This document shows positions 3,001-5,331 of a stretch of 20,069 nucleotides of DNA, in pieces. Position numbers: made by a program. Origin of the DNA: a virus (Duplodnaviria > Heunggongvirae > Uroviricota > Caudoviricetes); the IMG/VR virus record IMGVR_UViG_2778261642_000012, positions 1-20,069 of that record. The stretch is one strand, 5' to 3'. Each line of letters opens with the position of its first letter. Position 1 is the first letter of the stretch.

Positions 3001-5331
3001 ATGATTCCGTCCCGGATACCGAGAACGTTTCGTCCAGCAACTGGAGAGAGTTCGACGGTGGCATCATTGCCCATGCCGGAGGCGCTGGAGGTTTCGGCTG
3101 AGGATGGCACAGAGCATTTTCCTTTGACGAGCACCCGACCACCATTATCAAGCTTGCGCCGAAGAGCATCATTTTCAGCTTTCGCATCAGCTAACTCCTT
3201 CGTGTATTTAGCATCGAGTGCATCAGCAGCACGCTGGCGCTGCTGCATGTCAGTAATGGTGGCGGTCGCCTGCTTCAGCTCACTGACTTTTTTATCACGC
3301 TGTTCTTTATAGGCGATGGCGTTATCACGGTAATGATTGACCGCCCACGACAGGCAGACGATGATGCAGATAACCAGAGCATAAATAATCGCGGCGACTC
3401 TGCTCACTGATCTATCCCCCAACAGGCTAATGCACTTTCCTGGTCACGACGAATAACCTGTCCATAGCAGTTATTTGAACGTATGCGGCAATCGCGCCCA
3501 CCATCTTTTATCCACCAGCGAATCGCCTCGCATGCACCCTTACGATCACCAGCATTCAGTCGCTTATAAAACGTCGACGGGAAACACTTACCAGGGCCAA
3601 TGTTATAGGGACAAAATGACGCTATACCCGCTTTCTGTGGCTCGGTCAGTGGTACTTTAATATTACGTTCCACCCATGCCAGCGCCTTATCACGTTCAAT
3701 AGCGTTAACCTGGTCGCACTTTTCCTTCGACAGCTTCATTCCCGGTATGACGGGCTTACCATCCACCATTGTGGCACCGCGGCAGATGGTCCATATACCG
3801 GAACCATCACGGTATGCCGTTGTGTGATTACCCTCTTTTTCGTTCAGAAACTGGTCAAGAATGTCAGGCGCAGGCGCACCTGCGGCAATCAGCGCCAGAA
3901 CGACAGCCGACAGACCGTATTTGATTTTTGCGCTCATGGATATGGATGGATATTTATCAGGATTTATCGGTTCCAAATCCCTGGATATGTTTAGTACTCA
4001 GCCCGGCAGGTAGTTCCTCGCAGGGGTAATACTGACAATGTGAAGATCACAGAACAAACAGTAAGGACAACATATGAGCGATACTTATTTATCTAAAAAA
4101 GCTTTTGCTGATATTCTGGCCATCAGACAGGTTGTCATACTCCTGGTTAACGATTTACCAGATGAGAAAAAAGCAATTATTAAAGATTTGCTTACTAAAT
4201 CAGCTGACACTTTTTCATCAAAAAAATTACCCGAATCCCTGGAAACCCCGCAGGAAGTTTTAGACGAAATGAACAAATTGATTGCCGAATCATGCGCTAC
4301 TCTTGCTGAGACAATTTTAATTCCTGAAGAAACTTCATCGTCATACCATCAATAGTTTGCTGAACAGCTTTAGCAACAAACGCCACCCCATTTTCGTGGT
4401 GGCGTTGTCGCTCATTTACGGCTCGCATCGCGGCAACTATCGCACGACTTATGTCATCCCCGGCGTTTTTTTCCTGCCCTGCGCGCCTGGTGCTGGCTTT
4501 AACTGCACTATCAAAACCCGCAAGATGAGGACGATCGTGTTTATTGGCAGAATTTTCAATCTTAATGGAGTACTGATGCTGCAGATAAGACTCAACTTTT
4601 TCTGACAATTTTTCTGCCACTCCCAGGAAGACCTGCCTGACGCTCATTCTGGCTGCTGCCTCATAAAACTCCAGCGCGGCACCTTCAACACGGTCCAGCG
4701 AGATGTCCAGGTCAAAAATTTCACCGTCAAAGCGTTTTTTGTCCCGTAACGCTAAAGTTACCGTAACTTTATCCTCAAAATTGCGGATCCCTTTCACAAT
4801 CAGTTCATAGTTTTGAGTCATTGAATTACTCTCCCCGTGCAGCCTTACGCTTGTCTTCTCTGATTTTGAAGTACAGATTTGTCAGATAAGTCAGGAAGCC
4901 AAGAACCAGACTCCCCAGTACACCAATCGCAGCCCACTGTGAAGGACTGACCTGATCAAGCCACTGTAAAAACCAGTAGCCAGCACTGCCTGCGGAGGTG
5001 CCGTAGGCAATGCCCGTTGAAATTTTGTCCATGGATTTCATAGCCTCACCTCCGCAAATAACGGATGGCGTAGTTTTACACTGAGAAATGAAAGGGATTT
5101 GAAAAGAAAAACCCGCAAAAGCGGACGAAACGATATATACAGTAAGGAAAGCACTCTATCCAACAAACCACCCACAGTTAATCGGAATAAAAGCAGAGTG
5201 CTTATGAATGATCGCCTGCCCGAAGGTTAGTATTTCTGCACAGCAATTTTGCAAAAAAGCGATCATTCATAACTTAAACGTCTTTCAGCCACTCCGGGAT
5301 TTCCCATCATCGCAGACTGAAAGACTCTAAC

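Follow-up and report, generated by a model that had tools for sequence, protein, structure and literature searches.

Phage phi80 carries taiEcA between its lysis genes and its packaging genes, in antisense orientation within the Q operon. The gene is expressed in the lysogen, where its product keeps incoming phages from assembling their tails; TaiEcA is neutralized by the product of a small late gene, atiEcA, and the expression of Q lowers Tai (PMC11364771). [quoted passage not shown] In both phages, this layout turns off an immunity protein of the prophage while the phage itself grows lytically. Here, we describe a locus of related layout in the IMG/VR virus record IMGVR_UViG_2778261642_000012, positions 1 to 20,069 (this whole stretch of 20,069 nucleotides (nt) is called the window below). 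The window is a lambdoid prophage of E. coli whose lysis genes are read from the minus strand, and it is 100% identical over the query to the lambdoid prophage of E. coli APEC E18055 (NZ_CP126940.1, locus L001 of our set). Between its pinholin and endolysin genes there are two open reading frames (ORFs): a 174-amino-acid (aa) ORF that begins as ydfR, and a 93-aa antisense ORF, orf93. It is quite possible, though we hold the view tentatively, that positions 3944-4622 constitute a cargo cassette that occupies a polymorphic slot in the Q-dependent late operon, where Orf93 and a late partner, the C-terminal part of the 174-aa protein, are matched to each other and form a "noncontiguous operon".

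The YdfR protein of the Qin prophage has been reported to bind the N-terminal catalytic half of RNase E through its residues 1-72, as judged by two-hybrid and pull-down experiments, and to co-purify RNA (PMC13232886). Besides this RNase E interaction screen, our literature search found nothing on DUF1327, on ydfR in connection with a holin, or on a hotspot in the lysis cassette.

orf93 and the late-strand ORF opposite it

The features that bear on the proposal are the following.

4826-5041, minus strand: S21-type pinholin, 71 aa, with a dual-start MKSM motif; Pfam PF04971 (Phage_holin_2_1, "P21 holin S"), E 1.4e-35; named "class II holin" by the Prokaryotic Genome Annotation Pipeline (PGAP)
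4297-4821, minus strand: 174-aa ORF, YdfR/DUF1327 with a C-terminal partner module
4531-4821, minus strand: ordinary YdfR part of this ORF, from the alignment with 103-aa YdfR proteins
4300-4470, minus strand: partner module, residues 118-174, which aligns with the C-termini of the 176-, 183- and 211-aa YdfR proteins and with a stand-alone 73-aa gene
4297-4355: 59-nt stretch shared by the 3' ends of the two coding sequences
4074-4355, plus strand: orf93, 93 aa, antisense in the late operon; phrog_2572
3963-3991, plus strand: putative sigma-70 promoter of orf93, with -35 TTTATC at 3963-3968, a 17-nt spacer and -10 TATGTT at 3986-3991
3951-3971, plus strand: conserved 21-nt element ATATTTATCAGGATTTATCGG, an ATTTATC direct repeat with a 10-bp period that spans the -35 hexamer and abuts the endolysin start
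4379-4406, plus strand: conserved hairpin AACGCCACC-N10-GGTGGCGTT, 24 nt past the orf93 stop and inside codons 139-148 of the 174-aa ORF
3944-4622, no strand assigned: variable cassette, delimited by blastn of the window against phage PhiR47_1 (L058)
3404-3937, minus strand: SAR-type (signal-anchor-release) endolysin, 177 aa from ATG 3937, the start chosen by PGAP; Pfam Phage_lysozyme, E 1.3e-24

Both ORFs are genuine, conserved genes. A preliminary description of the locus had pointed to an AT-rich, acidic 93-aa ORF on the opposite strand with a strong Shine-Dalgarno (SD) sequence, and this holds in every respect: the SD sequence TAAGGA (4062-4067) lies 6 nt before the ATG and is kept in the group with the stand-alone partner, where the start codon is GTG; the GC content is 36% versus 48.6% for the window and 50-51% for the holin and endolysin genes; and the predicted product has an isoelectric point of 4.64 and a net charge of -6. 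The same description held that an antisense gene at this spot could modulate lysis. The antisense ORF has translation signals of its own, is AT-rich, encodes an acidic product and plausibly regulates late transcription or is regulated by it. The protein, listed by PGAP as "hypothetical protein" WP_059332741.1, matches phrog_2572 (E 3.8e-40) and has full-length relatives at 54%, 49%, 45% and 38-41% identity, which an exhaustive HMMER and profile search found only in Escherichia and Salmonella. They fall into three subgroups: the 93-aa type of the window, a second 93-aa type (45-54% identity) and an 86-aa type (38-41%). About 6% of complete E. coli genomes carry a member of the family: the window type is in 7 and the 86-aa type in 314 of the 5426. 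Twenty residues are invariant, the indels are in frame, and changes show an excess at the third codon position (e.g., 21/19/34 at positions 1/2/3), with a high ratio of nonsynonymous to synonymous substitution (dN/dS) of 0.5-1.1.

The putative promoter, TTTATC-N17-TATGTT, has a single match in the window where 0.05 would be expected by chance, and both hexamers are kept in nine contexts, among them the Salmonella position, which has no endolysin gene beside it; the proteins of these contexts share no more than 38-54% identity. At the other end of the gene, the hairpin at 4379-4406 is the probable terminator of orf93: the fold of 4353-4425 has a predicted energy of -25.6 kcal/mol (z -3.4), and a compensatory A:T to G:C change is seen in other groups. 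On the late strand, the same hairpin has a longer stem of about 15 bp (-25 kcal/mol, z -5.4). An Rfam search of 3900-5100 found no RNA family. Taken with its own SD sequence, these predicted signals present orf93 as a self-contained AT-rich gene with a sigma-70-like promoter and a terminator hairpin, placed antisense between ydfR and the endolysin gene.

The 174-aa ORF was described earlier as translationally coupled to the holin gene, with its start 4 nt past the holin stop, and the sequence confirms this: the pinholin gene is the upstream late gene to which it is coupled, the ATG follows the holin TAA by 4 nt (...GGGGAGAGTAA TTCA ATG) with GGGGAGAG as the SD sequence, and the spacing recurs in every related locus. 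Residues 1-93 match DUF1327 (PF07041) over profile positions 1-93 of 93 (E 3.2e-47, 159.1 bits versus a cut-off of 25), while phrog_34145 covers the full protein (residues 1-174, E 2.8e-118). The protein follows the 103-aa YdfR proteins, which are 84-96% identical to it over the common part, up to about residue 97, and then continues in an extension of about 77 residues (linker and helical hairpin), so that its layout is YdfR/DUF1327 in residues 1-97, a linker in 98-117 and a helical-hairpin partner module in 118-174. Since the 103-aa relatives already span the 93-position Pfam domain, the 174-aa protein is YdfR with an added C-terminal module, and of the earlier suggestion that it is a full-length relative of Qin ydfR, the relationship stands for the N-terminus but the "full-length" does not. 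The exact 174-aa protein is recorded on 29 contigs. In the identical APEC E18055 record, PGAP calls only the first 99 codons (L001 9626-9922, corresponding to 4525-4821 of the window) as a pseudogene "missing C-terminus", although the ORF itself is intact.

The ydfR part of this arrangement is not exceptional. In the Qin prophage of K-12, ydfR is also located between the holin and the endolysin genes (essQ-ydfR-rrrQ), and its product is 103 aa long. The order holin-ydfR-lysozyme is present in more than 40 related loci, and ydfR is annotated between an S21-type holin and an endolysin gene in essentially all of the best matches (E. coli prophages). It is, therefore, the rule in E. coli prophages with an S21-type holin that these two genes are separated by ydfR, contrary to the earlier statement that they are classically adjacent, and of the "two extra ORFs" noted in the cassette, the antisense ORF and the YdfR tail are indeed extra while ydfR itself is the standard occupant. 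Of 212 YdfR relatives in the database, the 120 best are ~90% identical over their first ~75 residues, after which come many unrelated C-termini; the portion conserved in all variants is the N-terminal ~66-75 residues, and lengths of 103, 114, 116, 174, 176, 183, 211, 243, 268 and 296 aa were seen. In the 243-aa variants (L008:4001-4732, L017:3224-3955), an in-frame insertion of 69 aa (VTVELPWHMASRVKVGKGGAPVLTKRIGSKVSVWLDNEEMLSVMYKEDYDPKTTFSDYEARAKKYALS), which has no Pfam match, separates the linker from the partner helices, and the 174-aa form may be a deletion derivative.

The overlap of the two ORFs, estimated earlier at ~59 nt, is exactly 59 nt (4297-4355). Wherever the 3' flank of orf93 is intact, in three subfamilies and at two genomic positions, its 3' end is overlapped by a late-strand ORF, by 59 nt in both 93-aa subgroups and by 53 nt in the 86-aa subgroup; the exceptions (L026, L045, L046, L107, L131) have a disrupted or truncated flank. 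In E. coli, the overlapping ORF is a YdfR variant of 174, 243, 169, 176, 183 or 211 aa. In Gifsy-like prophages of Salmonella and in some E. coli phages (L010, L019, L051-L055, L059-L063), it is a stand-alone late gene of 73 aa, whose start overlaps the stop of a DUF2514 spanin gene and which is followed immediately by terminase genes. The 73-aa ORF is often skipped by gene callers in Salmonella (it was called in L053 and not in L051, L052 or L054). The C-termini of all these late-strand ORFs align across ~45-65 residues, where R140, E143, A147, K169 and Q172 are invariant, as is E137 in a four-sequence partner alignment. The last ~57 residues of the 174-aa protein are a module that is found with orf93 in every case, as a fusion to YdfR in some loci and as the stand-alone 73-aa protein in others, and for orf93 this pairing is obligate.

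What speaks for the module as a protein is that the stand-alone ORF, with its coupled start, exists in five or more diverged versions, all of them open, that dN/dS of the partner is 0.3-0.5 outside the overlap, and that changes between the 73-aa and the 183-aa groups number 22/18/32 at codon positions 1/2/3. The reading frame also survives indels of +69 aa (the 243-aa variant), -7 aa (176 versus 183 aa) and +28 aa (211 aa), and the stop is found at one aligned position, yet in the form of different codons (TAG, TGA). On balance, it is probable that the YdfR tail is a functional domain. A low-confidence AlphaFold2 (AF2) model of the 174-aa protein has three strands and a long helix, then a disordered stretch, and finally one helix at 120-139 and another at 145-171, which suggests that the partner folds as two helices joined by a turn.

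Profile and structure searches of the kind proposed earlier for both proteins gave the matches to DUF1327, phrog_34145 and phrog_2572, but no fold match for Orf93. The protein is predicted by AF2 as a three-helix bundle of moderate confidence (predicted local distance difference test score (pLDDT) 71), and a Foldseek search with this model returned nothing from PDB or BFVD at E <= 0.001. Neither did orf93 match anything in Pfam, NCBIfam or PADLOC; the 73-aa partner and the other cargo ORFs introduced below had no match in PADLOC, and the 174-aa protein had none among PDB sequences. The hits of the orf93 profile in PDB, designed (repeat) proteins and AcrIIC4 at E 0.004-0.4, and the sole PADLOC match of the 174-aa protein, a weak one to HamA (E 0.007, 13.9 bits), were treated as chance. 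The two genes do not look like a type II toxin-antitoxin pair, which would be a co-directional bicistronic operon with a recognizable toxin or antitoxin fold: they are convergent, and there were no such matches in Pfam, NCBIfam or PADLOC and no sequence or fold match in PDB.

The location of the two ORFs invites the idea that both are accessory regulators of lysis timing by the pinholin and the SAR endolysin, with Orf93 acting at the membrane through its first helix, like an antiholin or like RI. In all contexts, the pair is found inside lysis cassettes or directly after them; residues 10-28 of Orf93 have a mean Kyte-Doolittle value of 1.63, borderline for a membrane helix (the second transmembrane segment of the holin has 1.72), and the size and layout of Orf93 are loosely reminiscent of RI of T4. 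However, this first helix carries the conserved residues D13, R18, Q19, N26 and D27 and is packed by AF2 into a soluble bundle; we read it as the core of that bundle, with membrane association as a possibility. The 174-aa protein, searched for a membrane or SAR segment, reached a Kyte-Doolittle maximum of only 0.68. The dual start of S21 already encodes its own antiholin, and orf93, being antisense to the late operon, is poorly placed for co-production with lysis proteins. Moreover, in Salmonella the module accompanies unrelated holins (Phage_holin_8, Phage_holin_3_7), a GH19 endolysin and the DUF2514 spanin, which speaks against a function that depends on S21 or R21, and the presence of the same module after a spanin gene there means that the pair is not specific to pinholin/SAR-endolysin cassettes. 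A pinholin-tied role is unlikely, and this explanation seems to us the most improbable of those considered here.

The slot and the function of its genes

Phage PhiR47_1 has the same backbone as the window (Q, a 141-aa ORF, four tRNA genes, holin and endolysin) but carries 165 bp in place of window positions 3944-4622, and with them a 104-aa YdfR and no antisense gene. When IMG/VR was scanned for the 21-nt element beside an endolysin start, 119 contigs were found, and 81 of them carry one of at least five unrelated families of small antisense ORFs:

phrog_2411: 90 aa, 38 contigs
phrog_2572, the orf93 family: 86 or 93 aa, 23 contigs
phrog_1853: 104 aa, 9 contigs
phrog_18136: 91 aa, 9 contigs
phrog_10490: 95 aa, 2 contigs

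The three families first seen at the slot were unrelated to one another by hhalign, and each of the four families whose adjoining YdfR was found has a distinct YdfR C-terminus. Of the 81 contigs with cargo, 78 have the -10 hexamer at the 17-nt spacing, versus 4 of the 32 without cargo. The 21-nt element is more widespread: it was seen in L002, L003, L010, L051 and others, including phages without a cargo ORF, and its ATTTATC repeat could be a regulator-binding site or a part of the translation-initiation region of the endolysin gene. The element ATATTTATCAGGMTTTATCKG was dropped as a cargo-specific feature because 24 contigs have it but lack an ORF of 45 aa or more downstream. It is the -10 hexamer alone that follows the cargo.

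These observations may be generalized by proposing that the slot between ydfR and the endolysin gene is a hypervariable site in enterobacterial lambdoid prophages, where at least five unrelated proteins of about 90 aa (phrog_2411, 2572, 1853, 18136, 10490), expressed antisense to the late operon, share a promoter and are each matched to their own YdfR extension, as polymorphic effectors of the lysogeny phase with late neutralizers (defence with self-immunity, or toxin with antidote), convergent overlapping transcription being the switch. In this full form, we consider the proposal doubtful.

For the window itself, the proposal of a matched pair may be set out as follows. The endolysin gene lies 3' of the orf93 slot in the late operon, and late transcripts must, therefore, traverse orf93 in antisense. 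In the lysogen, orf93 alone would be transcribed and Orf93 made. After induction, Q-modified RNA polymerase would read S21, ydfR with the partner, orf93 in antisense, R and Rz, and the partner would be made; at the same time, late transcription would oppose orf93 both head-on and through an RNA that is fully complementary to the orf93 mRNA. Because late transcription would thus make the partner while opposing orf93, the two proteins would be expressed in a mutually exclusive manner. By analogy with the systems introduced above, Orf93 may be a small soluble protein of the inhibitor type, acting in the lysogeny phase against superinfecting phages or against a late or host function, and the late-made partner may be the cognate neutralizer that protects the lytic cycle of the prophage itself, with YdfR proper as an ordinary late protein. 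As far as the sequence goes, either of the two could be the effector and the other the neutralizer.

The polarity may indeed be the reverse. The late partner, by itself or as a fusion with the RNase E-binding YdfR, would then be the effector, engaged, for example, in remodelling of RNA decay, host shut-off or an aid to lysis, and Orf93 would be a constitutive antidote to the leaky late product, overridden by Q. Orf93 has the look of an inhibitor (small, acidic, a helical bundle, fast-evolving with dN/dS 0.5-1.1), the inhibitor in 80alpha is the product of the small antisense gene, the partner is basic in three of its five versions, and its attachment to a domain for which RNase E binding has been reported points to an effector that has a target. 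On the other hand, the partner is not similar to any family of toxins or effectors, it is acidic in the commonest (86-aa) subgroup, and overproduction of Qin YdfR has little effect on growth or on the transcriptome (PMC13232886). We regard the reversed polarity as improbable, if somewhat less so than the involvement in lysis timing discussed above.

A more serious challenge is that orf93 may be functional alone, as a moron, and the tail of the 174-aa protein may be an incidental read-through of ydfR to the first stop with no relationship between the two proteins; the conservation of the partner would then reflect the constraint from the terminator hairpin of orf93 and from the 3' coding end of orf93. 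Several observations weigh in this direction and against a matched pair. Compared with other subfamilies, the window's own partner shows no codon-position signal (15/17/19 changes). The codons of R140, E143 and A147 lie in the conserved hairpin, and since most of the invariant residues of the partner fall there, its apparent conservation could come from a constraint on the RNA or DNA. The common 296-aa YdfR retains a degenerate first partner helix where no orf93 is present. Other cargo families, each of which goes with a different YdfR ending, overlap ydfR by 35 or 68 nt or lie 9 nt away from it, which means that an overlap can arise simply from ydfR running into the cassette downstream. From the hairpin to the stop, ~28 codons are open, for which the chance probability is estimated at ~0.26. 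PGAP treats the ORF as a truncated pseudogene, its AF2 model is unreliable (pLDDT 40), and charge complementarity between Orf93 and the partner is inconsistent across versions. The regulatory signals call for similar caution: the promoter, the terminator and the timing of both genes are predictions, a generic promoter scan missed 3963-3991 because the -35 hexamer fits the consensus at three of six positions, and the hairpin of the window lacks a U-run (in the 86-aa group, a T-run follows it). Finally, sequence and profile searches, and for Orf93 also a fold search, linked neither protein to a known family of defence, toxin-antitoxin, anti-defence or lysis-control proteins.

Incidental read-through does not account easily for the stand-alone 73-aa ORF, which has a coupled start and remains open in at least five diverged versions with no ydfR present, nor for dN/dS below 1 and the third-position excess between the 73-aa and 183-aa groups, for a frame that stays intact across indels of 207, 21 and ~84 nt, or for a stop kept at the same aligned position by different codons, TAG and TGA. 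We, therefore, find read-through unlikely, though it deserves to be taken seriously: if the tail were nothing but read-through, the finding would shrink to an ordinary moron.

The surrounding prophage

The remaining features of the late region, in the order of late transcription, are listed below; the terminase genes come after Rz/Rz1.

6568-7320, minus strand: Q antiterminator, first in the late-gene order
5862-6287, minus strand: AT-rich 141-aa ORF, between Q and the tRNA genes
5332-5641, minus strand: four tRNA genes, between Q and the holin gene
2940-3407, minus strand: Rz, 3' of the endolysin gene
2981-3187, minus strand: Rz1, embedded in Rz

The endolysin gene most likely starts at ATG 3937, the PGAP choice in the identical APEC E18055 record, and not at TTG 3976, which puts 136 nt between the diverging endolysin gene and orf93. 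Just upstream of this ATG, at 3938-3957, there is a 10-bp tandem duplication (GGATATGGAT GGATAT…) that is not found in any other aligned locus. The embedded Rz1-like ORF (2981-3187, minus strand) encodes a 68-aa lipoprotein (…VVGC) in the +1 frame of Rz and has no PGAP annotation; a further 50-aa ORF (2800-2952) overlaps the Rz stop. The tRNA genes (5332-5641, minus strand) are those for Gly-TCC, Thr-TGT and Lys-TTT and one with the anticodon CAT, assigned to Met by ARAGORN and to Ile by PGAP, and the block is flanked by terminator-like hairpins at 5765-5784 and 5111-5126. The 141-aa ORF (5862-6287, minus strand) has 31-41% GC and a lipoprotein-like N-terminus (…LVGC); it matches phrog_4748 and nothing in Pfam or PADLOC. 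Related phages have other genes at its position, e.g., DUF6650 or a methyltransferase, and this position is probably another moron site. Farther away, Rfam identified a C4 antisense RNA (12807-12894, minus strand, 83.6 bits) beside an isrK Hfq-binding RNA (12919-12995, minus strand, 67.9 bits), a pair that suggests an immunity/antirepressor control region of the P1/P7 c4-ant type or the isrK type in the prophage.

Comparison with known prophage gene arrangements

If the pairing of Orf93 with its late partner is correct, the locus is a new, sequence-unrelated case of a noncontiguous operon controlling an accessory or immunity protein of a prophage, of which few are known, and the first inside an enterobacterial lysis cassette. 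Five small protein families that share one promoter and one slot would make a compact and easily cloned set of candidates, and the locus links the newly reported RNase E-binding YdfR to a highly mosaic C-terminal region. It also exposes a problem of annotation: PGAP labels the 174-aa gene a pseudogene and usually leaves out the 73-aa partner.

The 174-aa ORF takes the position of Qin YdfR, after the S21-type holin gene and before the lysozyme gene; it differs from the 103-aa YdfR proteins in the extension, which is absent from them, and in the overlap with an antisense gene. The moron concept, proposed for lambdoid phages (Hendrix/Juhala), may also apply to orf93: it is an extra gene with a lower GC content, is present or absent among near-identical phages and is annotated as hypothetical, and a promoter and a terminator of its own are predicted for it. 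Unlike a moron, however, orf93 is locked by coding overlap to a late-strand ORF, and its promoter and slot are shared with at least four unrelated families of small ORFs.

No homology to Tai, Ati, Tha or Ith was found, and the resemblance to these systems is, therefore, one of working only and not of family membership. The hhalign comparison of the orf93 profile with TaiEcA gave a probability of 0.6% (E 0.096 over 17 columns), the partner has no resemblance to AtiEcA by inspection, and domain searches found no HEPN or other known effector domain in Orf93 or in the partner tail. The 80alpha Tha/Ith locus resembles the arrangement predicted here in having a nested small antisense gene with its own constitutive promoter and mutually exclusive expression states that are tied to the switch between lysogeny and lysis, but it is in the cI (lysogeny) operon whereas orf93 is in the late operon, and the host and the phage lineage are different.

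The phi80 Tai/Ati locus is also similar in layout. Its antisense-in-late-operon arrangement is found here in the order and strands of the genes, with promoter and terminator predicted; a late-strand gene of ~75 aa overlaps the antisense gene; and the stand-alone orf93 module, too, lies between the lysis genes and terminase. The differences are that Tai has 204 aa versus 93 aa for Orf93, and that the overlap in phi80 is 5', 20 nt long and divergent, whereas here it is 3', 59 nt long and convergent, with the terminator included. Together with the late partner to which it is locked, the antisense gene represents a variant of a recently recognized kind of prophage gene arrangement, in a slot that also houses several other small genes; the ydfR part is ordinary.

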